Origin: a virus
Lineage: Duplodnaviria; Heunggongvirae; Uroviricota; Caudoviricetes
Length of the DNA: 28,946 bases
Reading direction: 5' to 3' (one strand)
IMG/VR virus record: IMGVR_UViG_2617270968_000004
The position numbers and the translations under genes were made by a program. Under the pieces are notes generated by a model. It was not told the DNA's origin and did no database searches. It was given only the letters and a program-made list of their open reading frames with translations. Shown piece after piece: positions 5,700 to 26,737 of the stretch; within the stretch, counting starts at the first letter, position 1, and each line of letters opens with the position of its first letter.

Positions 5700-5710
5700 A
5701 TTAGAGCAAT
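5694..5710 (-). promoter_or_regulatory. C1 operator (minus orientation)
   Basis: Reverse complement reads ATTGCTCTAATAAAAAA. Confidence 0.5.
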
Positions 5711-5724
5711 CTACAGGGTGCACT

Positions 5725-5943: not shown

Positions 5944-5944
5944 A

Positions 5945-7207: not shown

Positions 7208-7279
7208 CAGTTACAGTGTCACTTTTGATGCTGGTGGAGTGCGCCCACCAGCATTTTTTTCGTCCAATGAGGAGGGCAT

Positions 7280-7786
7280 TTGAGTATTTTCAATAAACAC
7301 GCACACCAGGAACGTCCGTATATCGTCATAGTTGATATTGATGGAACAATATCAGAGGCAACTGAAGACAGACTGCATTTGCTTCCGCCACCAGGTAAAG
7401 GTGCATTAACAAAGGACTGGAACGAGTTTAATCTCGCCTGTGACACTGATACTCCCATAACTCCAGTTATTGATATTGTGCGCCAGTTATTTAACGTTTA
7501 CACGGTCTGGTTTGTAACCGGGCGCTGTGAGATCGCAAGGGATAAAACACGAGCCTGGCTGCGGAAGTACGTAACAAACGGGGCTGAGCCTTTGCTATCT
7601 ATGCGTCCTGCCACCGATGACAGAAATGACGGCCCAGCAAAGATTGATCTCCTTAAGAAAATTGGTCTAAGTAAAATCGCGTTCGCGCTGGAAGATAAGA
7701 TTGAAGTGGCGCGTGTTTTCAGGAGGCACGGCGTGCTTACGTTAATGGTCAGGGAGTATGAAAACGCGCTTCTCCATCAACAATAA
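7280..7786 (+). CDS. HAD-superfamily phosphatase-like protein (polynucleotide 3'-phosphatase-like; P1 pap-like by position)
   Basis: N-terminal DIDGT motif (HAD motif I) in a 168-aa protein. Confidence 0.55.
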   Translation: MSIFNKHAHQERPYIVIVDIDGTISEATEDRLHLLPPPGKGALTKDWNEFNLACDTDTPITPVIDIVRQLFNVYTVWFVTGRCEIARDKTRAWLRKYVTNGAEPLLSMRPATDDRNDGPAKIDLLKKIGLSKIAFALEDKIEVARVFRRHGVLTLMVREYENALLHQQ

Positions 7787-7802
7787 TTGCTCTAATAAAT
7801 AT
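7786..7802 (+). promoter_or_regulatory. C1 operator (ATTGCTCTAATAAATAT)
   Basis: 16/17 match to consensus, overlapping the pap-like stop codon. Confidence 0.6.
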
Positions 7803-7825
7803 TTATTTTTAAAGCAGAGAAAGTG

Positions 7826-7856
7826 AAAATAAAAACATGCCGCAAGGCGCGGCATG
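7826..7856 (-). terminator. Rho-independent terminator for minus-strand (hsdR) transcription
   Basis: 8-bp stem CATGCCGC/GCGGCATG with 5-nt loop; on the minus strand it is followed by a U-rich run (plus-strand A-run 7826..7835). Confidence 0.55.
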
Positions 7857-7884
7857 TATCCAATCAATCACAGGAGCTGAAAAT

Positions 7885-7971
7885 ATGAACACGGCATTCA
7901 AAATCATTATGGCCGCGATCTATTTCTGGCTGTTCTCTATCACTTTTGGCGATATCGTCGCACATGGGTAA
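7885..7971 (+). CDS. Small hydrophobic peptide (28 aa), candidate membrane peptide
   Basis: MNTAFKIIMAAIYFWLFSITFGDIVAHG with strong SD (CAGGAG, 8-nt spacing); lies within the 3' untranslated region of convergent hsdR. Confidence 0.3.
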   Translation: MNTAFKIIMAAIYFWLFSITFGDIVAHG

Positions 7972-8050
7972 GGGGAGTATATTAGCCATTTGGAACCCCA
8001 CGGTCTCTTGCGGGTTTAATTAAGAACCCGCAAGAAAAACACGAATTGGG

Positions 8051-11000
8051 CTATATTTTTCCGCCTACGCCTTTAAACTTCTCAATAAACGAGACGATTT
8101 TCTGGAAAACTGCCTGTTTTTTCGTTTTATATTGCGGATTTAACGGACTAAGTTTTGGTAATGTTTCGTTTAATTCTGTGCCATTTTCGGTGGCATATTC
8201 GCGTTTTAAAGACGTGCGAATATAGCGTTTTGCTGCATCTTCATTGAGATTTTCTTCTTTTATCAATGCTTCTGCTTCACGTTGCTGTTCGCGTTGAGCA
8301 AACGTAAAGAATGCGTCAATGATGCTGGCTTTGTCCGGTAAATCATCCAGGTTCGTTTGCTGAATAAAATCGACCACCAGGCCCTCTTTAGCACGGTTTC
8401 CCAGGCTTGAACGAATTAAGCGTTTGACCTCTTCGATCATTTCGCCCTTGCCTTTATTTTGTCTGTTGTGTTCGAAAATCAGTCCAAGGATATAATCCAG
8501 GTTTATTTCCTGAGACTTCAGCAAATCGACCTCAAAAACTACGTCATCCCAGTCAGTGGTTGATTTCTCTTTTTTCTCAGCTTCTTTCTCACGGCGCTGC
8601 CAGTCGCGAATATCGTTATAGGCAGAACGATAATCCTGAATCTTGCGATCAGCAGGGAGACGAATTGTTTGCAATTCAGCGAACTTTTCATCATCCACAT
8701 AATGTTCTGCTTTGAATTTTTCTACCGCAACAGGATCGCTAAGATCGATTTGTTGCAGGGCTTTTAGCGTGGCAAATTCATCATAGTTTTGCAGGATGTT
8801 CTCGGCACGCAGGTATTCGCCAAACAGTTTAACGAAGTCTTTCTTCTCTTTTTCACTTTCAATACTGGTAGGGTCAGGGAACCGTTGTTCCAGTTCTGAA
8901 ACTACTGTCATGAAGCCGCGTTTAGCTTCACCTGTAGCAGCATCAGTAAAGCCTTCCATATACTCTGTATAACTCTTTTCTAACACCACATTTTTGGTGT
9001 TTTTGTCACCAAACAGCGTTATGGCATCAATAGTTGAGCGTTCCAGATCCCGGAAAGTGACGATATTACCGAAGGTTTTAGTGGCGTCATAAATGCGGTT
9101 GGTGCGGGAAAATGCCTGCATCAGGCCGTGATAACGTAAGTTTTTATCGACGAATAGCGTGTTCAATGTTGGAGCATCGAAGCCGGTTAAGAACATCCCC
9201 ACGACAATTAGCAGATCGATATCCTGATTTTTAACCCGCTGGGCTAAATCACGATAGTAGTTCTGAAAACCGTTACTGTCGGTGCTAAAGTTAGTTTTAA
9301 AATGGCTGTTATATTCACGAATTGCAGCGTCCAGAAACTCTTTAGCACTGCTGTCCATTGCGCTGGTATCAAAAGTTTCATCGGAAATTTCACCAATGGC
9401 ATTTTGTTCTTCATTGGCGGCAAAGGAGAAGATTGTCGCAATACGCAGCGGTTTATAGGTAGCCGATTTATTAGCGGCTTCTTCTTGTAACCGTTTAAAC
9501 GTCGCATAATAGGCTTTCGCGGCATCCACGCTGCTCACTGCCAACATAGCATTAAAACCTTTTGAGCCAGGGAAGGTACGGTGGGTTTTCTGGCGGAAAT
9601 TATTCAGAATATATTGCGTGATTTCCTGAATACGCATGGGATGAAGAAACGCCTGCTGATTTTCAGCCGCACTCAGTTTTTTCTCGTCAGTTTCTGTCTC
9701 TAAAGACTTAAACTGTGGCCGCACATCGTTGTAGTCCACCTTGAATTTGAGCACTTTTTCGTCACGAATCGCATCGGTAATTACATACGAATGCAATTCA
9801 CGACCAAATACGCTGGCGGTTGTTTCTGAGCCTAAGGCGTTTTCCGGGAAAATAGGGGTGCCGGTAAAACCAAACTGATAATAGCGTTTGAATTTCTTCT
9901 TCAGGTTTTTCTGCGCTTCTCCAAACTGGCTGCGGTGGCATTCATCAAATATAAACACCACTTGCTGATTATATACAGGCAGATCGCTTTCTGCTTTCAT
10001 CAGGTTATTGAGTTTCTGAATAGTAGTGACGATAATTTTGTTATCGTCCTTATCCAGATTTCGTTTAAGGCCTGCGGTATTTTCCGAGCCGTTGACGCTG
10101 TCTGGCGAAAAACGCTGATATTCCTTCATGGTCTGGTAATCGAGGTCTTTCCTGTCGACCACAAAGAAGACTTTATCAATAAAGTCCAGCTCTGTTGCCA
10201 GACGCGCGGCTTTAAAGCTGGTGAGGGTTTTACCAGAACCGGTAGTGTGCCAGATATACCCACCGCTTTCCGGTTTTGACCAGTTCTTCGCTGTAAAGGA
10301 ACTCTTAATTTTCCACAGAATGCGCTCGGTGGCGGCAATCTGGTACGGTCGCATTACCAGTAGTGTCTGACTGCTGTCAAAAACGCTGTAGTTCACCAGA
10401 ACATTAAGCAGAGTATGTTTCTGGAAAAAGGTGGCGGTAAAGTCTTTGAGGTCTTTAATCAGCGTATTGTCTGATTTCGCCCAGTTCATGGTGAAGTCAA
10501 AACTGTTTTTATCGCGCTTTGTCGTGTTGGCAAAATAACGGGTATCAGTGCCGTTGGAAATGACGAACAGCTGCAGATACTTAAACAGGGAATTTTCGCT
10601 GTTAAAACTCTCTTTACTGTAACGATGTATCTGGTTGAAAGCCTCACGAATCGCCACGCCGCGTTTTTTCAGTTCGATTTGTACCAGCGGTAAGCCATTA
10701 ACCAGGATAGTTACGTCATAACGGTTAGCGTGAGAACCCGCCTGTTCAAACTGCTGGATAATCTGCACCTTATTGCGCATGAGATTCTTTTTATCTATCA
10801 AATAGATGTTCTCAAGACGCTCGTCATCAAAAATAAAGTCGCAAATATAGTCGATATGGATTTTACGGGTCTTATCCAGAATGCCATCGCTCGGGTTATC
10901 CAGATACTGCTCCGTGAAACGCCGCCACTCGCTGTCATTAAACACCACACCATTGAGGTTCTGAAGCTGTTCCCGAACATTGGCCAGCATCGCCGACTGT

Positions 11001-11167
11001 GATTTTACGGATATAAATTCATAGCCCTGATTCCGTAGGTCCTGTATCAGTTCGCGTTCCAGGTCCGATTCGCTCTGGTAGCTGTCGCCTGTTGGCTCAG
11101 CTTTGATGTACTTATCAAGAACGATAAAGTTATTGGATTCAGCAATGGTGTGTGTCTGATGAGTCAT
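8051..11167 (-). CDS. hsdR: Type I restriction enzyme R subunit (HsdR), type IC EcoR124-like
   Basis: 1038 aa; N-terminal PD-ExK nuclease motif ([17 protein letters not shown]), helicase motifs TGSGKT and DECH; size and N-terminus match the EcoR124 family as I recall it. Confidence 0.92.
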
Positions 11168-11288
11168 AGCGCATCCTTTGTGCCGTCTGGCAAGGGCCGG
11201 AAGGGGGGTAATGGTGACTTCCGGCGCGTAAAAAATAGTCTATATACTGACCGGGTGTTAAGGTGGTCCGATCGGTAGCAATGATCAA

Positions 11289-12503
11289 TTAATTACTGAC
11301 AGTTTCAGGTTTCGGGAAACTGAACAGTAAATCACGATAGTACTCGTATTGTTTCTGGCGCAACTCGATTTCACGCGGAAGACCTTCGGTGATGGAGTTA
11401 GTCAGTGTGTCGAATTTGTCGAGTATTTCGACAATTCGTTGTTGTTCATTGATGTTAGGAACCGGAATTTTAAATGAAAATAATTTTTTACTGTCAATAG
11501 AAGCTACGGACCCTCCTGTCTTTTTCGCTGCTCGCAGAATATCACTCCCCCTAGACCCAATCATATGATAAATATATTTAACCAAGATGTTTTCATGAGG
11601 AATGACTGCTTTCATATCTTGATTGAGCGTAGCAGGTACTTTTATTAATGCACTTGGTAATACTTTATCCAATATGCTTGAGCGAACAACGATTGCAATC
11701 GAGTTTGCTGGAATCAGTTTTGTTGACGATTGTAGAACAGCCTCCTCAGTTATATAGTCTTCCGAAGAGTCTACAAGTGTTCGGCCCATATCTTTCGGGG
11801 AAATCCATGGAATGCTTCCATTTTCCCAAAATTCAATTTTATTTTTTGATGGTGTCCCTCCCCCATACCATTTTCCGATCTCTCCCAAAGTCTTCCACTC
11901 AACCTCACCCTCTTTAAAACTCAACAACTGGTCGCGATAGTAGTTGTACTGTTTTTTACGCATGTTAAGCTCAGCGGTAAGCTCAGCGGTAAGTGCAGTA
12001 AATTTATCCAGAATCCGAACGATTTCAGACTGGATGGCAAGGGATTTTTCCGGATTATCCGGGCAGGGGATTGGGATTTTTTTTTGAGAATAATTACTAA
12101 TCCATTGGCGTTTATGGTCTCCCTCTGCGAATTCACTTGGTAATGTATTGAGCCAATAGTAAACATATTTCAGTAAGGTTTTATTATCATCACATGATGT
12201 AACCATTTTCATGGCCGATGATTTTGCCTTAAAGTCAAAATCCACCCATTTATTAGCGGTGGTGAAATCATCAAAAATTATTACAGGTGCCTTTGATGCC
12301 TGATAAATACCATGAGTCTCATTTGTGTATCCAAGAATAAATGTTTTTCCGGCAGTAAGAACCGGTATGGTATATGTGTCGTGATAATCTTTTGCTTTTA
12401 CCAAATACTTTGTTGGCTGTTCATATTTGGTTATTTCCCCCAATGGCAACCACTCAACTTCAACCCCATCCAGCAATTTTTCCAGATAACTCATCTCGCT
12501 CAT
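11289..12503 (-). CDS. hsdS: Type I restriction-modification specificity subunit (HsdS)
   Basis: 404 aa with two target-recognition domains separated by conserved regions ...[26 protein letters not shown] and ...[19 protein letters not shown]; 4-bp overlap with hsdM. Confidence 0.9.
11967..11990 (-). repeat. Tandem 12-bp repeat (2 copies) encoding TAEL-TAEL in the HsdS central conserved region
   Basis: Plus-strand AAGCTCAGCGGT x2; in type IC systems the copy number of this repeat sets the spacer length of the recognition site. Confidence 0.8.
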
Positions 12504-14062
12504 TTCTGCACCTCGCAGCCTTCAATTTCAGCCACAATCGCATCAATATCTTTGCGCAACTGGTCGATTTTGCTGACCGTGGTTTTCAGCTCAGCATTCA
12601 GCTCAGCAATATCGATAATTTCGCGGTTATCTTTCGCTTCCACATAGCTGCTCACCGACAGGTTATAGTCATTAGCAACAACGGTCTCAAACGCGACAGA
12701 TTTCGCCAGATGAGCAACATCTTCCTTGCTGGCAAATACCTGCATAATCTGTTCGATATGGGCATCGGTCAGGATATTGTTGTTAGTCTCTTTTTTGAAC
12801 AGTTCGCTGGCGTCAATAAACTGAACGTTGGTATCCGTTTTATGTTTGGACAGAACCAGAATGTTTACTGCAATGGTGGTGCCAAAGAACAGGTTCGGTG
12901 CCAGTGAAATTACGGTTTCGACATAGTTATTGTCAATCAGATACTGACGGATTTTCTGCTCCGCGCCGCCACGGTAAAAAATACCCGGGAAGCAAACAAT
13001 CGCAGCACGACCTTTGGCAGAAAGATAGTTCAGCGCATGTAATACAAACGCAAAGTCAGCTTTGGATTTGGGGGCCAGAACGCCAGCCGGGGCAAAACGT
13101 TCATCGTTAATCAGCGTCGGGTCATCGCTGCCAATCCATTTCACCGAATACGGCGGGTTAGAAACGATGGCATCAAACGGTTTTTCATCTCTGAAGTGTG
13201 GCTCAGTCAGTGTATTACCCAGCTTGATATCAAACTTGTCGTAGTTGATGTTGTGCAAAAACATGTTCATACGTGCCAGGTTATAGGTTGTATGGTTGAT
13301 TTCCTGACCAAAAAAGCCTTCTTCGATGATATGGTCATCAAACTGTTTTTTAGCCTGCAACAACAGCGAACCGGATCCTGCTGCCGGGTCGTAGATTTTG
13401 TTAACGTGGGTCTGCCCGTGCATAGCCAGTTGTGCAATCAGCTTAGAGACGTGTTGCGGTGTAAAGAACTCGCCGCCTGACTTACCGGCATTCGCCGCAT
13501 AGTTAGAAATCAGGAACTCATAGGCGTCACCGAACAGGTCAATCTGATGTTCGTTGAAGTCACCAAGTTTTAACCCTTCAACCCCTTTCAGAACCGCAGC
13601 CAGGCGGGCATTTTTATCTTTAACGGTGTTACCCAGGCGGTTACTGGTAGTATCGAAATCAGCAAACAAACCTTTGATGTCAGCTTCTGAAGGATAACCG
13701 TAAGCAGAACTTTCGATAGCAACGAAGATGCTGTTTAAATCTGCATTCAGTCTGTCATTAGTATTTGCTTTCGCAGCTACGTTGCAGAAAAGCTGACTGG
13801 GGTAGATGAAGTAGCCTTTAGTTTTGATGGCATCGTCTTTAATGTCATCAGTAATTACGCTGTCATCCAGTTTCGCATAACAGATACTGTCATCACCGGC
13901 TTCAATATAACTGGAAAAATTTTCGCTGATAAAACGGTAGAAAAGTGCGCCCAGAACGTATTGCTTAAAATCCCATCCATCGACCGAACCCCTGACATCG
14001 TTAGCAATTTGCCAGATTTGACGATGAAGCTCTGCACGTTGTTGAATACTTGTCATTTTCAT
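12500..14062 (-). CDS. hsdM: Type I restriction-modification N6-adenine DNA methyltransferase subunit (HsdM)
   Basis: 520 aa; AdoMet-binding [10 protein letters not shown] and catalytic NPPY motifs. Confidence 0.92.
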
Positions 14063-14201
14063 CCACTTATTTCAGGCTTATGTAATTGGATGTGATTCTA
14101 CAGCAACTTGGATGCTTTAGCAGTTCGGACATTAGGCTACGAATGACCTGCCTAGAGGTTTGTTAAGCCGCAAAGTGCTGGTGCTTTATGCCTGTGAAGT
14201 T

Positions 14202-14230
14202 TATAATTGTGTACACATAACGAGTACATG
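14202..14230 (+). promoter_or_regulatory. phd-doc promoter/operator (-10 TATAAT followed by GTAC-centred palindromes)
   Basis: TATAAT at 14202..14207, perfect palindrome TGTGTACACA at 14208..14217 and a second GTAC-centred site at 14222..14229, immediately upstream of phd. Confidence 0.5.
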
Positions 14231-14238
14231 AGGTATTT

Positions 14239-14460
14239 ATGCAATCCATTAACTTCCGTACCGCGCGCGGCAACCTTTCTGAAGTGCTCAACAATGTTGA
14301 GGCCGGGGAAGAGGTTGAAATCACCCGCAGAGGCCGTGAGCCAGCAGTAATTGTCAGCAAGGCTACTTTCGAAGCCTACAAAAAAGCGGCGCTGGATGCT
14401 GAATTTGCATCCCTGTTTGACACCCTGGACTCCACCAACAAGGAACTGGTTAACCGATAA
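14239..14460 (+). CDS. phd: Phd antitoxin (prevent host death; Phd/YefM family)
   Basis: 73-aa [39 protein letters not shown]..., P1 Phd length and sequence as I recall it; stop overlaps the doc start. Confidence 0.92.
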
Positions 14461-14840
14461 TGAGGCATATATCACCGGAAGAACTTATTGCGCTTCATGA
14501 TGCGAATATAAACCGCTACGGCGGCTTGCCGGGAATGTCAGATCCGGGTAGGGCAGAGGCCATTATCGGGAGAGTTCAGGCCAGAGTTGCCTACGAAGAG
14601 ATCACCGACCTTTTCGAAGTCTCCGCCACCTACCTGGTGGCTACAGCGAGAGGGCATATATTCAATGATGCCAATAAGCGTACCGCGCTAAACAGCGCGC
14701 TGCTATTTCTACGCCGTAACGGGGTGCAGGTATTTGATTCACCTGAACTGGCAGACCTTACTGTAGGCGCTGCGACTGGCGAGATATCTGTATCTTCTGT
14801 CGCCGACACGTTACGTAGATTGTATGGTTCTGCGGAGTAG
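14460..14840 (+). CDS. doc: Doc toxin (death on curing; Fic-fold kinase)
   Basis: 126 aa, Fic-like motif region [11 protein letters not shown]; translationally coupled to phd. Confidence 0.92.
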
Positions 14841-14844
14841 ATTA

Positions 14845-15024
14845 ATGGCACGCAAATACAACAAATTGTCCCGTGAAGCGTTAAAGATGCTTCTTGATGG
14901 CGTGAGTCGCCGCGAGGTAAAGCAATACCTGGTTGGTAAGCAAATTGGAGCCAGGACCGCTATTGCTGTGTTATGCCGTCAGGAAATGGTTGTGCTTAAA
15001 CAGAGAATGCCGGGCAGCAGATAA
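14845..15024 (+). CDS. Hypothetical small protein downstream of doc (pdcA-like position)
   Basis: 59-aa ORF from ATG 14845 with GGAG 8 nt upstream. Confidence 0.4.
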   Translation: MARKYNKLSREALKMLLDGVSRREVKQYLVGKQIGARTAIAVLCRQEMVVLKQRMPGSR

Positions 15025-15051
15025 AGCCCAATCAGTGATGAAAGGTGTGAT

Positions 15052-16095
15052 GTGAAAGCCGTAATTACTCCCTTTGTACAAAAAGAGCTTGGCGTCGCCA
15101 CATTCAAAGTGGATCAGGAAGTCAGAAAGCTGGTGGAGGCTGGCCGTAAATTTATTATGGAGCCGGTGCCGCGTGAGTTAATCGAGCACATGGACGACGG
15201 CCTCGTTGTTTCCGAGCAAACTATGGCAACAAATGAGGCGTTGCAGCCGTTTTTTAACAGCGATGAACTGTTTCGCAGTATTGGTGGAATTGACGCGCTG
15301 GTGGCGTGGTTGCGCAGGAAAGAGGGGCAATGCCAGGCCGCAGATCGTAGCTGGTGTGACAACCATATTGTCCACGCAGAACGAGACAATAGCGCGGTGT
15401 TGTTGTGCTGGCATCACGATAACCATTACCGGATGCGTGGTTTTAATGAGCTGAAAGAAACGCTGCATAATAATCGCGTTAACTGGATACTGGATGTCGC
15501 CCGTCAGGAAATGGGGCTTTCAGATGGCCATGATTTAAGTATTCAGGAACTGTGCTGGTGGGCTTTCATGCGCAACATGATGCACCTGATGCCGGAAGAA
15601 GTTTGCCGTATATCAATAAATAAGATGAAAGCCGCAACGCAGGATAGCGGACCTCTGAAAGAGGCGGATATTCGCCCGTATGACGATCGCGCTACAGCAT
15701 ATGTTCAGATGATGGAAGAACGCGCCGCGCCGATGCGTGCAAAAGTATGCCCTGTGGATGTTGACTCCGACCCTGGCATGGCGCATTTCAAAATACCAAA
15801 ACTGCAATCGCTAAAATTACCTGAGTACATGGACTTTGTTGCTTCCCGTCCATGCTGTGGGTGTGGAGCGGCGGGAGCTGGCGCTCACATTACGCCTTAT
15901 ATCGTTCGTCATAGTCGATTATACGCGCATGACATTTACGCAATTCCTCTGTGCCAGTCATGCCAGCGTGATATTGAGCGTGACCGCGATAATTGGGAGA
16001 AGACGCACGGTAGGCTGGCGATGCATCAACGATTGTTCTTTGATTACGCGCTTGGAGTCGGCGCTATCACAAGTCACTCGTCGAGCGTTAGATAA
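15052..16095 (+). CDS. Hypothetical protein with Cys/His-rich C-terminal region (pdcB-like position; possible degenerate HNH-like motif)
   Basis: 347 aa; C-terminus RPCCGCG...[10 protein letters not shown]...[10 protein letters not shown] resembles a zinc-binding HNH-like arrangement. Confidence 0.5.
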
Positions 16096-16096
16096 A

Positions 16097-16113
16097 ATTG
16101 CTCTAATGTATTG
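16097..16113 (+). promoter_or_regulatory. C1 operator overlapping a sigma70-like promoter
   Basis: ATTGCTCTAATGTATTG (14/17); -35 TTGCCA 16111..16116 and -10 TATTAT 16133..16138 with 16-bp spacing; 7-bp inverted repeat TGATTAG/CTAATCA at 16149..16171 in the leader. Confidence 0.55.
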
Positions 16114-16183
16114 CCATTTCTTTAATCGAGGGTATTATATTTCACGTTGATTAGTTGACATGGGCTAATCAGTAGGTGACAGG

Positions 16184-16766
16184 ATGTTACTTAACTGGCA
16201 GGGACGCCACTTCATGGAAATAAATCACTCACGAATAACATCGTACGAGATTGCGGATTACATGATCCGCACTAAATCTCTTCTATCAGCGAAAGAACTC
16301 GCAGCAATTCTTGAAAAGGAATACCCGCATCTGGATGTCGATAAGCGCGATGTTTATCTGCGCTTACGAACGAAAGCGTGAAAATAACTGGTCAGTGCTG
16401 GAAGCAGCTGAATTCATCGAGGCGCATGGCGGAAAAGTGCCGCCCCTGATGCTGGAGCAAATCAAAGCCGATCTGCGTGCTCCTAAGACCAATACCGATG
16501 ATGAGGAAAGGCAAACAGCCGTCGGTGGCCCTTCTCTTGAAGATCTGGACAAAGTTGCGCGAGAACGGGCCGCCAACCGCCGCGCCGATGCCGCATTGTG
16601 GATTGAGCAGCGTAGGGAAGAAATCGCCGATATCGTTGATACAGGCGGTTATGGAGATGTTGATACTGAAGGTGTATCAAACGACCCATGGCTGGAACAA
16701 GACCTGGACGAAGACGAGGAGGAAGACGAAGAAGTTACCCGCAAGCTATACGGGGATGATGATTAA
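16184..16766 (+). pseudogene. Candidate late gene (small-terminase or late-activator position) split across two frames
   Basis: ORF 16184..16381 (frame 2) and ORF 16311..16766 (frame 3, TTG-started in the track, acidic C-terminus [11 protein letters not shown]). A single +1 shift near 16375 would join them into about 190 aa; the stop overlaps the pacB start (TAATG). Confidence 0.3.
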
Positions 16767-18250
16767 TGGCCAGAAGTTGCGTAACGGATCCACGTTGGCG
16801 CGAGCTGGTGGCGCTATATCGTTATGACTGGATTGCTGCCGCTGATGTTTTGTTCGGCAAAACACCTACCTGGCAGCAGGATCTGATTATTGAGTCTGTG
16901 CAGGAACAGGGTAGCAAGACATCTGTTTCGTCTGGTCACGGTACCGGGAAATCAGACATGACTTCTATCATGATCATGTTGTTCATAATCATGTATCCCG
17001 GTGCCCGCGCCATTATCGTTGCGAACAAAATTCAGCAGGTAATGACCGGTATATTCAAGTACATCAAGATAAACTGGGCTACTGCCACCAGCCGTTTTCC
17101 ATGGCTTGCTGATTATTTTGTTCTGACAGAAACCGCTTTCTATGAGGTTACTGGTAAAGGTGTATGGACTGTAGTACCGAAGGGCTTTCGTCTGGGAAGT
17201 GAAGAAGCTCTCGCCGGTGAACACGCAGATCATCTTCTGTATATTATCGATGAAGCCTCCGGTGTCAGTGATAGAGCTTTCGGTATCATCACCGGTGCTC
17301 TTACCGGACAGGATAACCGCATCTTATTGCTGTCACAGCCTACACGCCCAAGCGGCTATTTCTACGATACACACCATAAACTGGCCAAGCGTCCTGGTAA
17401 CCCTGATGGCGTTTATACGGCGATCACGCTTAACAGTGAGGAATCACCGTTGGTAACGCCAGCATTTATCAAAATGAAGCTGGCGGAGTACGGCGGGCGT
17501 GATAACCCTATGTACATGATTAAGGTACGCGGCCTATTCCCTAAATCACAGGATGGCTTCCTTCTTGGACGTGATGAGGTTGAACGTGCAACGCGGCGGA
17601 AAGTCAAGATTGCCAAAGGATGGGGCTGGCTTGCATGTGTGGACGTTGCTGGTGGTACGGGACGGGATAAGTCCGTTATCAATATCATGATGGTGTCCGG
17701 CCAGCGAAATAAACGCCGTGTAATCAACTATCGAATGCTGGAATACACAGACGTTACAGAAACGCAGCTTGCCGCCAAAATTTTCGCAGAATGTAATCCT
17801 GAGCGATTCCCAAATATCACCATAGCGATAGACGGCGATGGCCTGGGTAAAGCAACGGCGGATCTGATGTACGAGTATTATGGTATTACCGTACAGCGTA
17901 TACGCTGGGGTAAAAAGATGCATAGCCGTGAAGATAAGAGCCTGTACTTTGATAAACGTGCTTATGCCAACGTTCAAGCCGCAGAGGCCGTAAAATCTGG
18001 TCGTATGAGACTGGATAAGGGTAATGAAACTATTGAGGAAGCGTCGAAAATCCCTGTAGGGATTAACTCCGCAGGTCAATGGAAGGTGATGAGTAAGGAG
18101 GATATGAAGAAAAAACTCAACCTGCACTCACCAGACCATTGGGATACATATTGTTTCGCTATGCTGGCGGATTATGTTCCCCAGGATGAAGTGCTTAGCG
18201 TCGAAGACGAAGCGCAGGTTGATGAAGCTCTGGCATGGCTTAATGAATGA
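16766..18250 (+). CDS. pacB: Terminase large subunit PacB
   Basis: 494 aa (the P1 PacB length as I recall it); Walker A-like GHGTGKS near the N-terminus; translational coupling to the upstream ORF. Confidence 0.8.
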
Positions 18251-18253
18251 ATA

Positions 18254-18270
18254 TTTGCTCTAATAAATTG
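18254..18270 (+). promoter_or_regulatory. C1 operator (TTTGCTCTAATAAATTG)
   Basis: 15/17 match, 4 bp after the pacB stop. Confidence 0.55.
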
Positions 18271-18395
18271 TGTTTTTTAACTACCGATGTTACATTGAGC
18301 CTGACCTCTTGCGCCTTGAGGCATTTTCGGTTTATGCTTATCAGGCACCTCATTAAAACGGGTGCCGGGATTGGCCTCCCGCTTAAGTCTAAGGC

Positions 18396-18425
18396 GATAC
18401 AGACGCCGCTCGCGTCTTTTTTTTG
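18396..18425 (+). terminator. Rho-independent terminator
   Basis: Stem AGACGC/GCGTCT with 5-nt loop followed by T8 (18418..18425). Confidence 0.6.
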
Positions 18426-18589
18426 TATCGGCGTACACGCACACCTCTACAATGGTGGGCTGTATGGGGCTACCTTCGGGTAGGCTGGTTACCTTGGACG
18501 CCAGTAAGGCCAACTCCGTACAGTCCACCGCCAGCAAGATTGGTCTCTTCTGCGGTGGTTACATACCAACGTCTAAGGAGGCTGCCAAT

Positions 18590-18811
18590 ATGGCTACTAT
18601 CCCTATCCCAACTCATCCTGAATTTATCTGGCGCTTTTACTCCTGCCAAAAACGTCACTATCACTTCGTTATTGCACCGACAGAAGATGAGGCCCGCTCT
18701 CAGCTTCCTGACGCCCCATGTATTTTCTCTGCCCGTTTTTCCACTGATTCACGCAATTCTCTCAGTTACTGGTGCCTCCCTGTTAACGCTTCTGCTCAGG
18801 AGGGACTATGA
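18590..18811 (+). CDS. icd: Icd-like small protein (73 aa) translationally coupled to the antirepressor gene
   Basis: ATG 18590 preceded by AAGGAGG; 73 aa, the P1 Icd length as I recall it; stop overlaps the ant start (ATGA). Confidence 0.5.
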   Translation: MATIPIPTHPEFIWRFYSCQKRHYHFVIAPTEDEARSQLPDAPCIFSARFSTDSRNSLSYWCLPVNASAQEGL

Positions 18812-19926
18812 GAACGTCATTAGTCACCCGTGAAGAGATGATCGAGGCAATTGAACAGCACACTGCCTGTATCAGTACCAGGGATATACCAGGCGTTATT
18901 GCCAACTACTTCATGATCACCAAACAACTTTACCGGAGAAAGGACAAGAACGCGGTTCACCGTATCCTGTTGTCTGATATCCGCGAATACCTGCTCGAAC
19001 AGGGTCATCTGAATTACGCAACCGCCGCAGCCGAAGCACGCAAGGAGGCACACAGAATGAAAGCAACTAACGTTAAATCAGAAAAAATTCATGCACCTTC
19101 AGTTCAAGAATCGGAGCTGGTGGTTGTTCAGAATCAGTCTGATGAAATTCCCGTTCTGGAATGGCAGGGAGTGCGTGTAGTGACAACCGAGACTCTTGCT
19201 AGAGGGTATGGGACAGAAACAATCCGTATTCGCCAAAATCATCATGAGAACAAAGTACGCTTTGTTGAAGGGAAGCACTTTTTCAAAGTTGAAGGAGAAT
19301 CATTGCGCGAGTTGAAGCACAGAGTAGCTTTAAACTACTCTGTAAAAATTGCTCGCAATGTTCGCTCACTCACCCTCTGGACAGAACGCGGCGCAGCCCG
19401 CCACGCTAAAATGCTCGAAACCGATCAGGCATGGGCATTCTTTGAAAAACTGGAAGACAGCTACTTCCGACAAAAAGAACAGCAACCGATCGCAATCCCC
19501 CAGACGCTTCCTGAAGCCCTACGCCTGGCTGCCGAACTGGCTGAACAAAAGCAACTTCTGGAACAGAAAGCCCACCAGCTAAATCAGCAGCTGGTGGCCG
19601 CCGCTCCTAAAGTCGATTTTGCCGACCGGGTATCAGTAGCTAAAGGGATCCTGATTGGGAATTTTGCAAAGGTTGTTGGACTTAAACAAAACGCGCTGTT
19701 TGTCTGGTTACGGGAGAACGGCATCCTGATAGCGTCCGGTGGACGTAAAAATGTGCCGTTCCAGCAGTACATCAACGCGGGGTATTTCACGGTGAAAGAA
19801 GTGGTGCTGGATGATGAAGATGGCTACCAGATACGGTTGACGCCTCAATTAACGGGTAAAGGCCAGCAGTGGTTGACGCGTAAACTGCTCGATGCTGGCT
19901 TGTTAAAACCGGTGGCGGCTGAATAA
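18808..19926 (+). CDS. ant: Antirepressor Ant1-like (ORF6N plus KilAC/Ant domains), with in-frame internal Ant2-like start at 19057
   Basis: 372 aa; central VLEWQGVRVVTTETLARGYG... and C-terminal VDFADRVSVAKG...FVWLRENGIL antirepressor-type regions; internal in-frame ATG 19057 has its own AAGGAGG, giving a 290-aa product. Confidence 0.6.
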   Translation: MRTSLVTREEMIEAIEQHTACISTRDIPGVIANYFMITKQLYRRKDKNAVHRILLSDIREYLLEQGHLNYATAAAEARKEAHRMKATNVKSEKIHAPSVQESELVVVQNQSDEIPVLEWQGVRVVTTETLARGYGTETIRIRQNHHENKVRFVEGKHFFKVEGESLRELKHRVALNYSVKIARNVRSLTLWTERGAARHAKMLETDQAWAFFEKLEDSYFRQKEQQPIAIPQTLPEALRLAAELAEQKQLLEQKAHQLNQQLVAAAPKVDFADRVSVAKGILIGNFAKVVGLKQNALFVWLRENGILIASGGRKNVPFQQYINAGYFTVKEVVLDDEDGYQIRLTPQLTGKGQQWLTRKLLDAGLLKPVAAE

Positions 19927-19958
19927 TGGAAGAATGCCCGGTTGATGCCGGGCATAAT

Positions 19959-20810
19959 TTATTGCGCGCTTTCGGGGTTGTCGTTTACTGGCTGCCCCTT
20001 CTTGGTTTTACGGCTGCGCGTAACTGATGCGGCTGACTTAACCTTTTTCTCTTCGCGAGTGATGGCAATTTGTTTTTTTACATTTTCAATATCTGCCAGG
20101 CGATATATTTTTGCTTGCGGCCAGCGGTCGCAGATGATCGGTTCTATGGAGTCATAAAGGCTAAATTTTGCTTTTTCGAATTCACCGTTGATGATAATTC
20201 CATCACGGAGAGTTTCATCGCAGATAAACACGCCACACAGTGGCACATGGTAACTAACTGATTTACCATCATTGTAGTTAGGGCTACTGGAAATGTAGTG
20301 GACGCGCAGCATTGTTTCGCTAAAGCCGTGTACGCGCATACGGAATTTTTCATCCTCCGGGTACTGCTTCATTAGCTCTTTTGTTGCTTCCAGGTTCTCT
20401 ATGTATTTCGCACTGTGCTCATTGATCCCCGCGCTTTTTTGGATGCGAATGTCCTTATCAATCAGATGAATAATGCGGCCAGCGGTCATGTTGACGCTGT
20501 TCACAGCTTCTGTCTGATAAGTTGTAACCTTACGCACACCGCGAAGGATGTTAGGCACTGGATATAAAATAGTCTTTGGGATATTGAGGTCTGGGTACTG
20601 TTCCAGTTCCCGCGCCATTAAAGTCCATTTATCAATTTCAGCCTGAATGCTGTCAGTTTCTTTGAACGGTAGAACGACAACCGGGCGTACAGGACGACCG
20701 TCGCTGGCTGTATCAACGTGTTGGGCGCGTGCAACAGCTTTTTTTAGAAAGAGATCCCTGAAGCTGACGAACTCCTGGTACAGTTGTTCGCCGTAGACAT
20801 AATTTATCAT
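19959..20810 (-). CDS. c1: C1 repressor of lysis (P1-type primary repressor)
   Basis: 283 aa, the P1 C1 length as I recall it; its cognate operators are scattered through the window and coi lies immediately upstream. Confidence 0.8.
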   Translation of the reverse strand: MINYVYGEQLYQEFVSFRDLFLKKAVARAQHVDTASDGRPVRPVVVLPFKETDSIQAEIDKWTLMARELEQYPDLNIPKTILYPVPNILRGVRKVTTYQTEAVNSVNMTAGRIIHLIDKDIRIQKSAGINEHSAKYIENLEATKELMKQYPEDEKFRMRVHGFSETMLRVHYISSSPNYNDGKSVSYHVPLCGVFICDETLRDGIIINGEFEKAKFSLYDSIEPIICDRWPQAKIYRLADIENVKKQIAITREEKKVKSAASVTRSRKTKKGQPVNDNPESAQ

Positions 20811-20904
20811 TGATCCTCCTCCAGAATTGACATGGTCAATAACGCCCGGCTGAGAAAACCGGTCATTACTGACCTATATTATAGAGGGATCAAACAAAAA
20901 TAAT

Positions 20905-20921
20905 AGATTTATTAGTGCATT
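20905..20921 (-). promoter_or_regulatory. C1 operator-like site between coi and c1
   Basis: Reverse complement AATGCACTAATAAATCT, 14/17 to consensus. Confidence 0.4.
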
Positions 20922-21130
20922 TATTGTGAGTCTAACTGGTTAGTTGCCATGAGATATTCGATTGTGTCAGTGAGGTCATCCAGGTCGTCTTGGGTGATGC
21001 GGTACTCCTGATTGGATATCTTTGAGTAGTGTTCAGCAATGGCGCGGGCAGCGTCGGTTTCGGCAGGGTCTACAGATAAAGCGTTAGAGCAATGTCTAAC
21101 GTCGTCGATGGTTGGTTGAATGAAAGCCAT
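20921..21130 (-). CDS. coi: Coi (C1 inactivator)
   Basis: 69-aa acidic protein directly upstream of c1 on the same strand, the P1 Coi size and position as I recall them. Confidence 0.7.
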   Translation of the reverse strand: MAFIQPTIDDVRHCSNALSVDPAETDAARAIAEHYSKISNQEYRITQDDLDDLTDTIEYLMATNQLDSQ

Positions 21131-21368
21131 AATTATGCCTCACTGTATTGACAACACAGAGCCTGAAGCTCTGACCTACTGTTTCACCCATGATCCATGC
21201 TGGGGTAATCTAACAACATTGCGCTGTGTGTAAGATGAGCAATGCATAGCTGTAATGCCGTTGTATAAGGTTTCCCTGTTTGCTCATTTCCTTCTGAGCC
21301 GCTCTACAACGCTGAAGACACATTAAATAGTGAATCCAAAGTCGTATTACGAAACGGCGGCAAAACTA

Positions 21369-21385
21369 TAATTCATTAGAGCAAT
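21369..21385 (-). promoter_or_regulatory. C1 operator (minus orientation)
   Basis: Reverse complement ATTGCTCTAATGAATTA (15/17). Confidence 0.55.
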
Positions 21386-21451
21386 TGTCAAACAACTATG
21401 AAAAACAATCCAGTTTTTGGCTGGTGGAGTTGGATTTTTCTCTCAAAATTT

Positions 21452-21468
21452 ATTGCTCTAATAATTCT
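21452..21468 (+). promoter_or_regulatory. C1 operator (ATTGCTCTAATAATTCT)
   Basis: 15/17 match to consensus, about 45 bp from loxP. Confidence 0.6.
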
Positions 21469-21511
21469 TGATTTTTATGCGCAGCTGGACGTAAACTCCT
21501 CTTCGGACCTA

Positions 21512-21545
21512 ATAACTTCGTATAGCATACATTATACGAAGTTAT
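21512..21545 (+). other. loxP: loxP recombination site (34 bp)
   Basis: Exact ATAACTTCGTATA-GCATACAT-TATACGAAGTTAT: two 13-bp inverted repeats around the 8-bp asymmetric spacer. Confidence 0.97.
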
Positions 21546-21564: not shown

Positions 21565-21637
21565 GATCAATTTACCTGTAAATCCATACAGTTAAATACC
21601 TTATCAGGTCAAATAGTGATCACTTGATCATTTGATC
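21565..21637 (+). promoter_or_regulatory. GATC (Dam site) cluster in the loxP-cre regulatory region
   Basis: Four GATC sites at 21565, 21618, 21626 and 21634, the last three as TGATCA repeated at 8-bp spacing; P1 cre promoters are known to be Dam-regulated. Confidence 0.5.
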
Positions 21638-21963: not shown

Positions 21964-22995
21964 ATGTCCAATTTACTGACCGTACACCAAAATTTGCCTG
22001 CATTACCGGTCGATGCAACGAGTGATGAGGTTCGCAAGAACCTGATGGACATGTTCAGGGATCGCCAGGCGTTTTCTGAGCATACCTGGAAAATGCTTCT
22101 GTCCGTTTGCCGGTCGTGGGCGGCATGGTGCAAGTTGAATAACCGGAAATGGTTTCCCGCAGAACCTGAAGATGTTCGCGATTATCTTCTATATCTTCAG
22201 GCGCGCGGTCTGGCAGTAAAAACTATCCAGCAACATTTGGGCCAGCTAAACATGCTTCATCGTCGGTCCGGGCTGCCACGACCAAGTGACAGCAATGCTG
22301 TTTCACTGGTCATGCGACGGATCCGAAAAGAAAACGTTGATGCCGGTGAGCGTGCAAAACAGGCGCTGGCGTTCGAACGCACTGATTTCGACCTGGTTCG
22401 TTCACTCATGGAAAATAGTGAGCGCTGCCAGGATATACGTAATCTGGCATTTCTGGGGATTGCTTATAACACCCTGTTACGTATAGCCGAAATTTCCAGG
22501 ATCAGGGTTAAAGATATCTCACGTACTGACGGTGGGAGAATGTTAATCCATATTGGCAGAACGAAAACGCTGGTTAGCACCGCTGGTGTAGAGAAGGCAC
22601 TTAGCCTAGGGGTAACTAAACTGGTTGAGCGATGGATTTCTGTCTCTGGTGTAGCTGATGATCCGAATAACTACCTGTTTTGCCGCGTCAGAAAAAATGG
22701 TGTTGCCGCGCCATCATCCACCAGCCAGCTATCAACTCGCGCCCTGGAAGGGATTTTTGAAGCAACTCATCGATTGATTTACGGCGCTAAGGATGACTCT
22801 GGTCAGAGATACCTGGCCTGGTCTGGACACAGTGCCCGTGTCGGAGCCGCGCGAGATATGGCCCGCGCCGGAGTTTCAATACCGGAGATCATGCAAGCTG
22901 GTGGCTGGACCAACGTAAATATTGTCATGAACTATATCCGTAACCTGGATAGTGAAACAGGGGCAATGGTGCGCCTGCTGGAAGATGGCGATTAG
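21964..22995 (+). CDS. cre: Cre site-specific tyrosine recombinase
   Basis: 343 aa MSNLLTVHQNLPALPVDATSDEVRKNLMDMFRDRQAFSEHTWKMLLSVCRSWAAW...; catalytic-region motifs (HSARVGAARDM, GGWTNVNIVMNY) and an adjacent loxP. Confidence 0.97.
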   Translation: MSNLLTVHQNLPALPVDATSDEVRKNLMDMFRDRQAFSEHTWKMLLSVCRSWAAWCKLNNRKWFPAEPEDVRDYLLYLQARGLAVKTIQQHLGQLNMLHRRSGLPRPSDSNAVSLVMRRIRKENVDAGERAKQALAFERTDFDLVRSLMENSERCQDIRNLAFLGIAYNTLLRIAEISRIRVKDISRTDGGRMLIHIGRTKTLVSTAGVEKALSLGVTKLVERWISVSGVADDPNNYLFCRVRKNGVAAPSSTSQLSTRALEGIFEATHRLIYGAKDDSGQRYLAWSGHSARVGAARDMARAGVSIPEIMQAGGWTNVNIVMNYIRNLDSETGAMVRLLEDGD

Positions 22996-23604: not shown

Positions 23605-24165
23605 ATGAAAACAATCGAACAAAAACTTGAACAGCGCCGCGAGTGGCAGAAGGCAGCCAGAGAACGAGCGATCGCTCGGCAACGGGAAAAGTTGGCTGAC
23701 CCCGCCTGGCGAGAATCGCAATATCAGAAAATGCGGGATTCTATCGACCGCCGTATCGCTAAACAGAAAGAGCGCCCACCAGCCAGCAAAACGCGGAAAA
23801 GTGCGGTAAAAATAAAATCTCGTGGCTTGAAGGGGCGAACACCGACGGCGGAGGAACGGACCATCGCCAATGCTCTTGGCACTCTCCCCTGCATTGCCTG
23901 CTACATGCATGGAGTAATATCTGAAGAGGTGTCTCTGCACCATATCTCCGGTCGTACCGCGCAGGGTTGTCACAAAAAGCAATTGCCCCTTTGTAGATGG
24001 CACCACCAGCATGCAGCACCGGCTGAAGTAAGAGAAAAATACCCCTGGCTGGTCCCCGTTCATGCCGATGGTGTGGTTGGAGGCAAGAAAGAATTCACCT
24101 TGCTGAACAAGTCAGAGATGGAATTGCTGGCTGACGCCTATGAGATGGCAAACATCATGCACTAA
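23605..24165 (+). CDS. ref: Ref (recombination enhancement function; HNH-family endonuclease)
   Basis: 186 aa, the P1 Ref length as I recall it; basic N-terminal region and HNH-like Cys/His core (CIACYMHG...HHISGRT...CRWHH). Confidence 0.8.
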   Translation: MKTIEQKLEQRREWQKAARERAIARQREKLADPAWRESQYQKMRDSIDRRIAKQKERPPASKTRKSAVKIKSRGLKGRTPTAEERTIANALGTLPCIACYMHGVISEEVSLHHISGRTAQGCHKKQLPLCRWHHQHAAPAEVREKYPWLVPVHADGVVGGKKEFTLLNKSEMELLADAYEMANIMH

Positions 24166-24353: not shown

Positions 24354-24998
24354 ATGGATAAGAAAATATGCGTTGTTTCGATGAACGTCGGCAAACCGGC
24401 GTCAATGACTGCTGCATGGATCAACAACGAGCTGATAATGGCTGAGCGGACCAGATACCCTGAACGCCGCCGCGACATGGAACTCCAGCTGCTGCGCGAA
24501 TTGCGAGAAAAAGAGGAAAAGGGTTTTATCGTGCTGGTGGAAGAGGAAAACAGCTTTATTACTGGTCGAGTTGGCCAGCGTGTAAGGTTGCGCGATCCCT
24601 TCATGAACGGCAGGCCGGTACTAATTGAAGCAATGCAGATTTACAAGGAGTTGGAACGCCAGAAAGCGATCAAGTTACCGCGCAAGGAATCCGGCAAATA
24701 CATCCTCCACCAAAGCATCTTCGATTCCGAACACGATAAAAAAGGCGATGAGTTTTTCAACATCAACTGGAGCGAAATAACGACAGAGCATGTTCTGACG
24801 TTGTTATGCTGCTTCGCAACAGAATACAACAACGTGGTAAGCGCAGACTACATCAGGACAATGACAGACACCGTTACTAAACAAGACAACGAATATTCAC
24901 CATATGAGCCATTTGTAAATATGATAAAAGCATTTTATCGGATGGAGCTCACTAAAGTTCCTCAAGGTAAATTAACAGGTAAGGATAACATCTTTTAA
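24354..24998 (+). CDS. mat: Mat-like protein (maturation control position in P1)
   Basis: ORF with AGGGGGAG SD before ATG 24354 (track ORF 24327..24998); positioned after ref as in P1. Confidence 0.5.
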   Translation: MDKKICVVSMNVGKPASMTAAWINNELIMAERTRYPERRRDMELQLLRELREKEEKGFIVLVEEENSFITGRVGQRVRLRDPFMNGRPVLIEAMQIYKELERQKAIKLPRKESGKYILHQSIFDSEHDKKGDEFFNINWSEITTEHVLTLLCCFATEYNNVVSADYIRTMTDTVTKQDNEYSPYEPFVNMIKAFYRMELTKVPQGKLTGKDNIF

Positions 24999-25051
24999 GC
25001 ACAGTAATGAGGTGCTTAGATGTTCATATCAATATCCTAACTCTCTGCATC

Positions 25052-25741
25052 TCATAAATCTGATAGCCACTTACTATCTATGGACTCAATCTCCGTCAGC
25101 GGAATTGATGGGAAAAAATATCCCTGAGCGCCCCATAGTCCTATCCCTTTTGATAACTTATGACAATCAATGTTTTCGACGCCTTCAGCGATGATATTCG
25201 GACATAACTTTTTTAAATTGCTAATAATGACATCAAAATGAGGCTTAATCATATGCTCTTGAAAAAATGACTTATCAAGTTTTATTGCATGATATTTATT
25301 TTTAATTAATGCTTTCATGGTGGCGTTACCACTTCCAAAATCATCAAGCCAAACATTATCTGTCAAAGTCAGTAGAAAGGATATGATGTAATCCTCATCG
25401 CTTAAATCAGGATAGTTTTCTGATATTTCAATCGCTATAAATTTATTGTTTATTAGTAGTTCTTGAATTTGTTTATTGCCATATATATATAAACAGGTAT
25501 CATAATCTACATTGATAGAGCATAATATATTATGGCGTTCAAAAAAATACTTATATTTGATTATTGTGTTAAGTTGAGATTTTAGCAAGTTAATCTTCAT
25601 CTTGCTTGTAAACATACCCAATACTTTCTGAGTAGAAAGAATAGCCCCCTCGTTGGAATAAAATCTGCTCAACACTTCCACTGCTATCAACTTGTTAGTG
25701 CTTGTGGAAATGATTGGTTCTACTATGTAGATAACTTCCAT
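25052..25741 (-). CDS. EAL-domain protein (putative c-di-GMP phosphodiesterase), stand-alone
   Basis: 229 aa with EAL-domain signatures EVL (E retained), DDFGSG, KLDKSF, AEGVEN and QGYFF; SD GAGGG upstream; visibly AT-rich gene. Confidence 0.7.
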   Translation of the reverse strand: MEVIYIVEPIISTSTNKLIAVEVLSRFYSNEGAILSTQKVLGMFTSKMKINLLKSQLNTIIKYKYFFERHNILCSINVDYDTCLYIYGNKQIQELLINNKFIAIEISENYPDLSDEDYIISFLLTLTDNVWLDDFGSGNATMKALIKNKYHAIKLDKSFFQEHMIKPHFDVIISNLKKLCPNIIAEGVENIDCHKLSKGIGLWGAQGYFFPSIPLTEIESIDSKWLSDL

Positions 25742-25964
25742 GCTCCCACCCTCTATTTTTAAATTGGTTGGCTTTAGCAGATAAAGTGCCCTTTATATTT
25801 ACAGGGGTTACACACTATGTCAATTTATTTATCTGTAGTGAAATTGATAAAAATTCAATAATAAAAAAACAGCAACTGTGACACAAATCAATATTTTTAT
25901 TTTTTGCACAACTTCTTGATTTCAGTGCTGCTGTATCTCTATTCTTGTTCAAAGCCTCTTTAGA

Positions 25965-26699
25965 ATGGTGGTAGCTATGTCAGGAGTCTGTTACTTCATC
26001 CTAATAAAAAAACCGATAATTTTTCAATTTCTTAAGGATTTCTTAATATTAAATTATGGTGATGTGCTGTTGCTTAAACATTCTGAACGCGAATTCTTAC
26101 AAACCTATTCAGATAAATATATCGAATTCGAACTTAATGATAGTGCTGTAAGAAACTATTTATCTTGTCACAATCACCAAGGGAAGCAACTTCTGGATAA
26201 ATGCCCACATTTGCTAAAAAAGTCTTTTGCTTATCCTGATTTATTAATCAGGATGATCGATAATATAAGTGACCAGAATCATATACATCCTGATTTTAAG
26301 GATGCTTTAACTTTTTCATTACTTTCAATTTTTAGTGATGTTGACAACCTTAGAGCTTTTCTTACGTCTGGCATGCCTACTTTCTCAGGGAAAGTACGCA
26401 GCATATTTCTTTCAGATGTATCTAAACATTGGAAACTAAGAGATTTAACTGATTATCTATACATGAGTGAGAGTTTAATAAAGAAAAAACTATTATTAGA
26501 AAACACCTCCTTCAGTAAGTTATTACTTGATACACGGATGGCTTTTGCTATTAAATTACTAAAGCAAAACCGCCCCCTCAAACAAGTATCAGAAAGTTGT
26601 GGTTTTAGTAGTATATCGTACTTTGTGTACCTATTTAGGCAGTATTATAATTGTACACCATGTGAATATGCAAAACATCAGTTATCATCTGGGAAATAA
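25965..26699 (+). CDS. AraC/XylS-family transcriptional regulator
   Basis: 244 aa; C-terminal helix-turn-helix region ...LKQVSESCGFSSISYFVYLFRQYYNCTPCEY; AT-rich, divergent from the EAL gene. Confidence 0.7.
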   Translation: MVVAMSGVCYFILIKKPIIFQFLKDFLILNYGDVLLLKHSEREFLQTYSDKYIEFELNDSAVRNYLSCHNHQGKQLLDKCPHLLKKSFAYPDLLIRMIDNISDQNHIHPDFKDALTFSLLSIFSDVDNLRAFLTSGMPTFSGKVRSIFLSDVSKHWKLRDLTDYLYMSESLIKKKLLLENTSFSKLLLDTRMAFAIKLLKQNRPLKQVSESCGFSSISYFVYLFRQYYNCTPCEYAKHQLSSGK

Positions 26700-26737
26700 G
26701 ATGCATTTATCTCCCAGATAATATTGTAATATTAAAC

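Follow-up and report, generated by a model that had tools for sequence, protein, structure and literature searches.

The DNA analyzed here (28,946 nucleotides of the IMG/VR virus record IMGVR_UViG_2617270968_000004, the whole of which is called the window below) is, judged from its sequence, part of a P1-like (Punavirus, RCS47-type) phage-plasmid. Very probably, a single illegitimate-recombination deletion of 1,149 bp, by which the 5′ part of lpa is joined to the 3′ part of pacA, made this phage-plasmid a defective one that is maintained solely as a plasmid, and no new packaging system is involved. Both the late-gene switch and the packaging origin are thus lost through one 1.15-kb deletion. 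The finding, although real, is an ordinary one: the window represents a recent deletion derivative of a well-known phage-plasmid, and the element is most likely a defective prophage of an ordinary kind, persisting only as a plasmid.

Phage-plasmid Backbone of the Window

Three segments of the window, 1588–7975, 14157–16366, and 16351–21528, align to RCS47 with 95–99% identity and in the same order. Besides this colinearity and identity with P1 and RCS47, the elements expected of the phage-plasmid backbone were found, namely c1, a C1 operator, and loxP-cre. The c1 repressor gene (19959–20810, minus strand) is a full-length ORF of 283 aa colinear with c1 of RCS47, and immunity is retained. The cre gene is located at 21964–22995 in the ORF list. 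Upstream of the lesion, pdcB (15052–16095, plus strand) is intact, encodes a DUF968 protein (Pfam, E = 1e-49), and is colinear with the P1 and RCS47 annotations; its P1 homologue is labeled as an HNH endonuclease in RefSeq. The visible part of the element is 29 kb, and repA, parAB, and repL lie outside the window. Inside it, phd/doc is intact, and hsd is also present in addition to c1. The hsd genes belong to a type I restriction-modification operon (8051–14062, minus strand) with ORFs of 1038, 404, and 520 aa that are hsdR/S/M-like, and this operon takes the place of the upf/hot/humD block found between pap and phd in RCS47 and P1.

Deletion Junction and the Missing Segment

The pdcB-lpa-pacA-pacB regions of RCS47 and vB_EcoM-673R5 (673R5) show 98.9–99.8% identity to the window on both sides of the junction, and they share with it the gene order, the phiW39-type pacB allele, and the ant gene between pacB and c1. 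The window differs from them in that the segment running between lpa nt 184 and pacA nt 794, with LPpac and pac, is absent. By blastn and direct sequence comparison, the junction was located at 16365–16368, in the context GCGCT(TA)/CGAACG, and the breakpoint was mapped base by base between 16366 and 16367. The 2-nt TA in parentheses is the junctional microhomology and the sole sequence common to both parental sites, which leaves the exact crossover ambiguous by 2 nt. The missing segment amounts to 1,149 bp relative to P1 and RCS47 and to 1,147 bp relative to 673R5, whose pacA is itself 2 nt short. When the whole window was compared with RCS47 by blastn, positions 17368–18501 of the RCS47 locus (L006) had no match in the window. 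Furthermore, 16 phage records, among them the P1-like phages 673R5, RCS47, JL22, SJ46, P1, and P7, and 535 plasmids matched a 3,301-bp query across the region along at least 80% of the query, and among the matches listed the query always fell into two pieces spanning about 4,448 bp of the record. The alignment with P1-like lpa-pacA-pacB regions proposed in the earlier note therefore shows that this region is not colinear with that of functional P1-like phages, and its suggestion that an internal deletion removed pac and disables self-packaging was correct.

According to the P1 annotation, in which pac lies inside the 5′ end of pacA, the deletion took away the 3′ two-thirds of lpa, the late promoter LPpac (P1 locus positions 2169–2187), the pacA start, an IHF site, four mapped pac cleavage positions, and 4+3 TGATCR elements. 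These elements are located at locus positions 2416–2450 and 2546–2569 in P1, RCS47, and 673R5. The first 264 pacA codons are gone, including those for the HTH-like N-terminal region of PacA. The pacA gene of 673R5 (ON470615.2; L001 2223–3414), which is 2 nt shorter than that of P1 and RCS47, is annotated as two CDSs, Pac1 and Pac2, and reflects either a genuine pacA frameshift or a sequencing error in the record.

Several candidates for the cause of the right breakpoint were rejected. The mosaic boundary between P1-type and phiW39-type pacA/pacB alleles is not at this position, as divergence begins about 135 bp further downstream. An insertion sequence (IS) at the junction, or at the corresponding pacA position of relatives, was also rejected; the IS2 and IS3-family insertions of CP057799 and NZ_CP061751 sit in pacB, not at the junction. 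At the right breakpoint, DNA folding revealed no local hairpin of significance (z −0.3), and long-range inverted repeats between lpa and pacA were found at chance level only (74–77% over 19–22 nt). In the literature, no paper describing this lpa-pacA deletion was found.

Remnants of lpa and pacA Upstream of pacB

The locus begins with Olpa, a C1 repressor operator (16097–16113, plus strand; ATTGCTCTAATGTATTG) that is identical at 17 of 17 positions to the annotated P1 operator. It is followed by Plpa, a C1-controlled sigma-70 promoter (16111–16138, plus strand) that matches the P1 annotation position for position, with a −35 element TTGCCA at 16111–16116 and a −10 element TATTAT at 16133–16138. 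Two substitutions in the Plpa region are private to the window lineage: one at 16115, which makes the −35 element TTGCCA instead of the TTGCTA of P1, RCS47, 673R5, and NZ_CP061751, and the other at 16142, just downstream of the −10 element.

The only plus-strand ORFs of size upstream of pacB are 16184–16381 (65 aa) and 16311–16766 (151 aa), which are in different frames, so that the earlier note was right, in coordinates and in content, to describe two overlapping ORFs and no pac-type GATC cluster between the C1 promoter and pacB. The upstream one is a truncated lpa: codons 1–61 are native (to 16366) and are followed by four out-of-frame codons (RTKA) and a stop. By BLASTP, this part is identical to residues 1–61 of the 150-residue RCS47 Lpa. 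In the Pfam profile BPP1_LPA, the ORF covers positions 1–49 of 131 while RCS47 Lpa covers 1–130, and in PHROG 1704 (Lpa-like activator) it covers positions 1–63 of 148; the full BPP1_LPA domain (about 131 positions, in a 150-aa protein) is thus absent from the ORF of the window. The downstream ORF contains the 3′ remnant of pacA (16367–16766, plus strand), which consists of PacA residues 265–397 and the stop codon and lacks a native start codon, a ribosome-binding site, and its own promoter; the ORF opens with 17 codons that come from lpa in a different reading frame. The remnant is identical (100%) to residues 265–397 of the 397-aa RCS47 PacA and covers positions 274–402 of 417 in the terminase profile PHROG 1711. 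Searches by sequence for relatives with solved structures returned none for Lpa and none for PacA. The downstream ORF ends with TAATG, overlapping the start of pacB at 16766. The pacB gene (16766–18250, plus strand), encoding the large terminase subunit (494 aa; PHROG terminase large subunit), is intact, and 493 of 494 residues are identical to RCS47 PacB.

The earlier note had proposed that a +1 shift would fuse the two ORFs into a protein of about 190 aa. The arithmetic holds (61 + 133 aa); the terminase does not, since the halves come from two unrelated proteins. Three points were missed there. The upstream ORF, from its identity with RCS47, is read as Lpa, the activator of late promoters, and not as the start of pacA; the +1 shift would yield a meaningless Lpa-PacA chimera and would not repair a terminase; and the loss of lpa and LPpac, which would shut off all late transcription, weighs more heavily than that of pac. 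In annotation, the two ORFs are best entered as pseudogene fragments of lpa and pacA; labels such as small terminase or hypothetical protein should be avoided.

Among the requirements of the P1 pacase, intact PacB is present in the window, and full-length PacA (397 aa), the pac site with its 4+3 TGATCR elements, IHF site, and cleavage points, and LPpac are absent. Compared with the P1 system, the window has preserved pacB and an Olpa/Plpa region identical or nearly identical to that of P1, and it differs in the loss of PacA residues 1–264, LPpac, and the entire pac site; its pacB is a diverged allele with 83% nucleotide identity to P1 pacB. In the 2 kb upstream of pacB there are six isolated GATC sites (15112, 15343, 15685, 16264, 16470, and 16542) against a chance expectation of about 7.8, and no TGATCR element occurs in these 2 kb or anywhere between 11282 and 16971. 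As for a pac-like site elsewhere, the only GATC/TGATCR cluster of the window is at 21565–21637, directly after loxP and upstream of cra/cre, and corresponds to the annotated Dam methylation sites of the cre regulatory region of P1. Here, loxP (21511–21544; ATAACTTCGTATAGCATACATTATACGAAGTTAT) is followed by four GATC sites (21565, 21618, 21626, and 21634), three of which are 8 nt apart; three Dam sites are annotated in the cre region of P1, and the window has one more. A late-promoter scan with the −22/−10 motif of LPpac found nothing, LPpac itself being atypical.

Carriers of the Junction, Predicted Consequences, and Rival Explanations

The exact 29-nt junction recurs in two further IMG/VR contigs, which stem from different genome projects. 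Over about 14 kb, these carriers match the window at 99.90 and 99.985% identity (13 and 2 substitutions, respectively), and one of them (L004) diverges structurally from the window after 24825. Because the same junction recurs in these contigs, the deletion is considered real and inherited; because the carriers are nearly identical and pacB is undecayed, it is considered recent. The allele is rare and known only from draft contigs: at IMG/VR loci having the right flank, wild-type pacA lies to its left in 109 of 111, and neither PLSDB nor the RefSeq complete E. coli genomes contain the exact junction.

The deletion very probably arose by illegitimate recombination, with its left end at the foot of a hairpin in lpa (see below) and the TA microhomology at the junction. 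In P1, mutants of gene 10 (lpa) are defective in late gene expression, and cutting at pac needs both PacA and PacB. Without Lpa, the late promoters would be silent and the head, tail, lysis, and pacase genes would not be expressed; without PacA and pac, the DNA would be neither cut nor packaged. After derepression, the element would then produce no virions and undergo no packaging from its own pac, and the plasmid would be kept by its addiction, immunity, and restriction modules. These failures of late transcription, packaging, and virion formation are predicted from established P1 biology, in which Lpa is required for late genes including those for lysozyme, structural proteins, and packaging proteins (PMC8198154), and pacA is among the 21 most conserved genes of P1-like elements (PMC9603915). 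The truncation of pacA in the window stands in contrast to this usually very high conservation. The element resembles the P1 gene 10 mutants in the loss of Lpa function and in the late-transcription failure predicted for it, and it differs in that the lesion is a natural deletion that also took packaging functions, not a point mutation. The content of the window is that of a defective phage-plasmid: lpa, pacA, and pac are lost and phd/doc, c1, and hsd are retained, the essentiality of Lpa and PacA being taken from the literature and from general knowledge of P1. Decay of P1-like phage-plasmids to plain plasmids through the loss of genes is documented (PMC10879196). Like such P1-derived plasmids, the element has a P1 backbone minus genes of the full cycle and has kept plasmid maintenance modules (phd/doc in the window); those plasmids are defined by loss of a many-gene repertoire, whereas here a single small mapped deletion is found in a visible backbone that is nearly intact. 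An intact second copy of lpa-pacA-pac in the same cell, for example on a co-resident P1-like plasmid, could complement the defects in trans. We would class the element as a defective P1-like plasmid without the ability to spread infectiously; the distinction is relevant to any scoring of P1-like plasmids as phage vectors that carry resistance or cargo genes.

Overlapping ORFs in different frames do look like a frameshift, and the earlier note had considered a sequencing error. An artefact of this kind, whether a frameshift of one base or a collapse during assembly within a small-terminase gene that is otherwise intact, is extremely improbable, because the difference from the relatives is a clean 1,149-bp gap and not one base, because the identical junction occurs in contigs of other IMG projects that are 2 and 13 substitutions away from the window, and because repair of the frame would join two unrelated proteins; with the junction present in three independent assemblies, this reading was dropped. 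Another proposal of the same note, that the lineage uses a different, short small terminase together with a different pac site, could draw on the acidic tail at the C-terminus and on the coupling to pacB through TAATG, which resemble the 3′ end of a small-terminase gene. The ORF bearing them, however, is identical to RCS47 PacA 265–397 and reaches only the last part of the terminase PHROG, the 5′ ORF is Lpa (identical to RCS47 Lpa 1–61), and all close relatives (99% identity) have complete genes together with the pac cluster, so that the probability of a distinct terminase is close to nil.

The element might also be a helper-dependent remnant for which a P1-like phage, co-resident or superinfecting, provides mobilization or complementation, or whose N-terminal Lpa peptide or C-terminal PacA fragment interferes with such a phage. 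The intact pacB, which now lies directly downstream of the C1-controlled early promoter Plpa and shows no decay (493 of 494 residues identical to RCS47), would suit this role, as would the fact that all seven of the seven IS-free lpa-truncating alleles examined (see below) keep at least 46 N-terminal Lpa codons along with Olpa/Plpa. Without pac, however, headful packaging cannot start even with a helper, and a recent deletion explains the intact pacB equally well, the three carriers differing by no more than 0.1%. In addition, the frames after the junction differ among the alleles and all but one are out of frame, so that no common fusion product has been selected. Helper dependence is accordingly very unlikely, and a simple deletion that left a plasmid-only derivative is preferred.

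Recurrent Truncation of lpa and a Possible Hairpin Hot Spot

The left end of the deletion coincides with a hairpin in lpa (16342–16366; lpa nt 159–183, 25 nt), TAAGCGCGAT-GTTT-ATCTGCGCTTA, whose centroid in DNA folding had an energy of −8.8 kcal/mol (z −2.85) when the wild-type context was used and of −10.3 kcal/mol (z −3.30) with the context of the window. At least seven distinct natural IS-free deletions truncating lpa were found, with left ends at lpa nt 140, 161, 183, 183, 183, 198, and 233 (loci L003, L117, L122, L123, L147, L148, and L160). Allele A, from lpa183 to pacA795, is that of the window and the two IMG/VR contigs. Allele B joins lpa233 to pacA795/796 in three complete plasmids (NZ_CP010179, NZ_CP061751, and NZ_JBRAVH010000003). 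Allele C, in NZ_AP045806, joins lpa183 to ant nt 1020 at the 3′ end of ant, and allele D joins lpa183 to pacB nt 668 with a 7-nt CGCTTAA microhomology in one IMG/VR contig and NZ_JBRNHF010000003. Allele E, an in-frame Lpa-Ant fusion starting from lpa198, was mapped in the IMG/VR contig L123 (IMGVR_UViG_2778261693_000004), and its junction sequence is 100% matched in the MRE162 plasmids (three substrain records, NZ_CP119401, NZ_CP119403, and NZ_CP119405) and in NZ_CP135674. The commonest is allele F, in which lpa161 is followed by 74 nt of pacB and then ant; it occurs in at least 23 complete E. coli plasmids, such as pEC1515-2. Allele G, from lpa140 to ant nt 1052, is carried by three plasmids. 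In an IMG/VR sample anchored in pdcB, the non-colinear loci with a break inside lpa all represent alleles A, D, E, or F.

The left ends of alleles A, C, and D fall on the final base of the hairpin, its 3′ foot, and that of allele F lies within the first three bases, its 5′ foot; junctional microhomology is 2–7 nt, and the deletions span 1.1–3.5 kb. By our own arithmetic, random placement of eight left ends (the seven alleles plus one allele ending near lpa nt 67) along a gene of 453 nt gives an expectation of 3e-4 to 3e-3 triple coincidences, the higher figure allowing for microhomology ambiguity. The three deletions may have arisen in a nested manner, for instance by conversion of A to C or D, and the same nucleotide would still have been reused. 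Because the same lpa nucleotide is used repeatedly, a hairpin-associated hot spot for slipped-mispairing deletions is supported, and the anatomy of the junctions suggests this mechanism. Spontaneous deletions of E. coli at hairpins and microhomologies arise by slipped mispairing or copy-choice at palindromes. The lpa deletions resemble these in having an end at the base of a stable stem-loop and 2–7 nt of junctional microhomology, and they differ in their span, which is longer than in typical events of the model systems. That the lpa hairpin is a natural deletion hot spot, which repeatedly and independently makes non-lytic plasmids out of P1-like phage-plasmids, is a tentative proposal whose chances fall a little short of even. 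If the hairpin lesion were also selected, since loss of Lpa stops lysis driven by late genes while plasmid functions are kept, it would constitute a mechanistically defined and recurrent route of domestication.

Of the 664 records with lpa among RefSeq complete E. coli genomes, 108 contain less than 80% of the gene, and the survey of truncations covers a spread sample of these 108. The numbers hint that lpa truncation is a frequent, possibly hot-spot-driven way by which P1-like phage-plasmids become plain plasmids. Some of the partial-lpa records are fragments of lpa nt 126–453 within TnAs1/IS26 resistance regions. For example, in NZ_CP063493.1 (38154–38495; L161) and similar records, a 3′ fragment of lpa is located between a truncated TnAs1 transposase gene and IS26. 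The transposon-borne fragment was found in 4 of 60 evenly sampled lpa-matching E. coli records, and this lpa remnant appears to travel with transposon DNA. In contrast to the IS-free alleles A–G, the allele of NZ_CP041922 keeps ISEc52 at its junction.

Alleles A and B end at the same place in pacA within 1 nt, at codon Tyr265 (window 16367; 3185–3187 in L003), directly 3′ of a 10-nt direct repeat, AAGCTGGCAT-TGTT-AAGCTGGCAT, and their left flanks and backbones differ by about 3%. No structural (local hairpin) or mosaic-boundary explanation for this shared right end was found. About 0.07 such coincidences are expected by chance after correction for about 28 pairs of right ends, and the coincidence is only mildly surprising.

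In allele E, lpa codon 66 is joined in frame to ant, the antirepressor gene, which predicts an Lpa(1–66)-Ant fusion under the C1-controlled Plpa. PHROG 26110 and 63 also detect the Lpa N-terminus, and therefore fusions of the Lpa-Ant type are represented in phage databases.

Other Features of the Window

A second lesion is present at the left end of the window. An IS3-family element carrying a group II intron (1–1590) has removed the last six codons of the baseplate gene 26, which fits a decaying prophage. The IS3-family element has HTH_Tnp_1 and HTH_21 ORFs on the minus strand, and the intron gene ltrA is found in matching plasmids. Gp26 (1562–1948) is identical to that of RCS47 for 119 aa, and its final six residues are replaced. 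Genes 25, 7, and 24, which come next after gene 26 in RCS47, are absent from the window.

On the other side, beyond ref (23605–24165, RecA-dependent nuclease), the P1 backbone gives way to cargo (24863–28946). This region encodes an EAL-domain protein (25052–25741, minus strand) and an AraC-family regulator (25965–26699), and it contains IS fragments at 27711–28115 and at 28539–28635, the latter being an IS1-like match of 97 nt.
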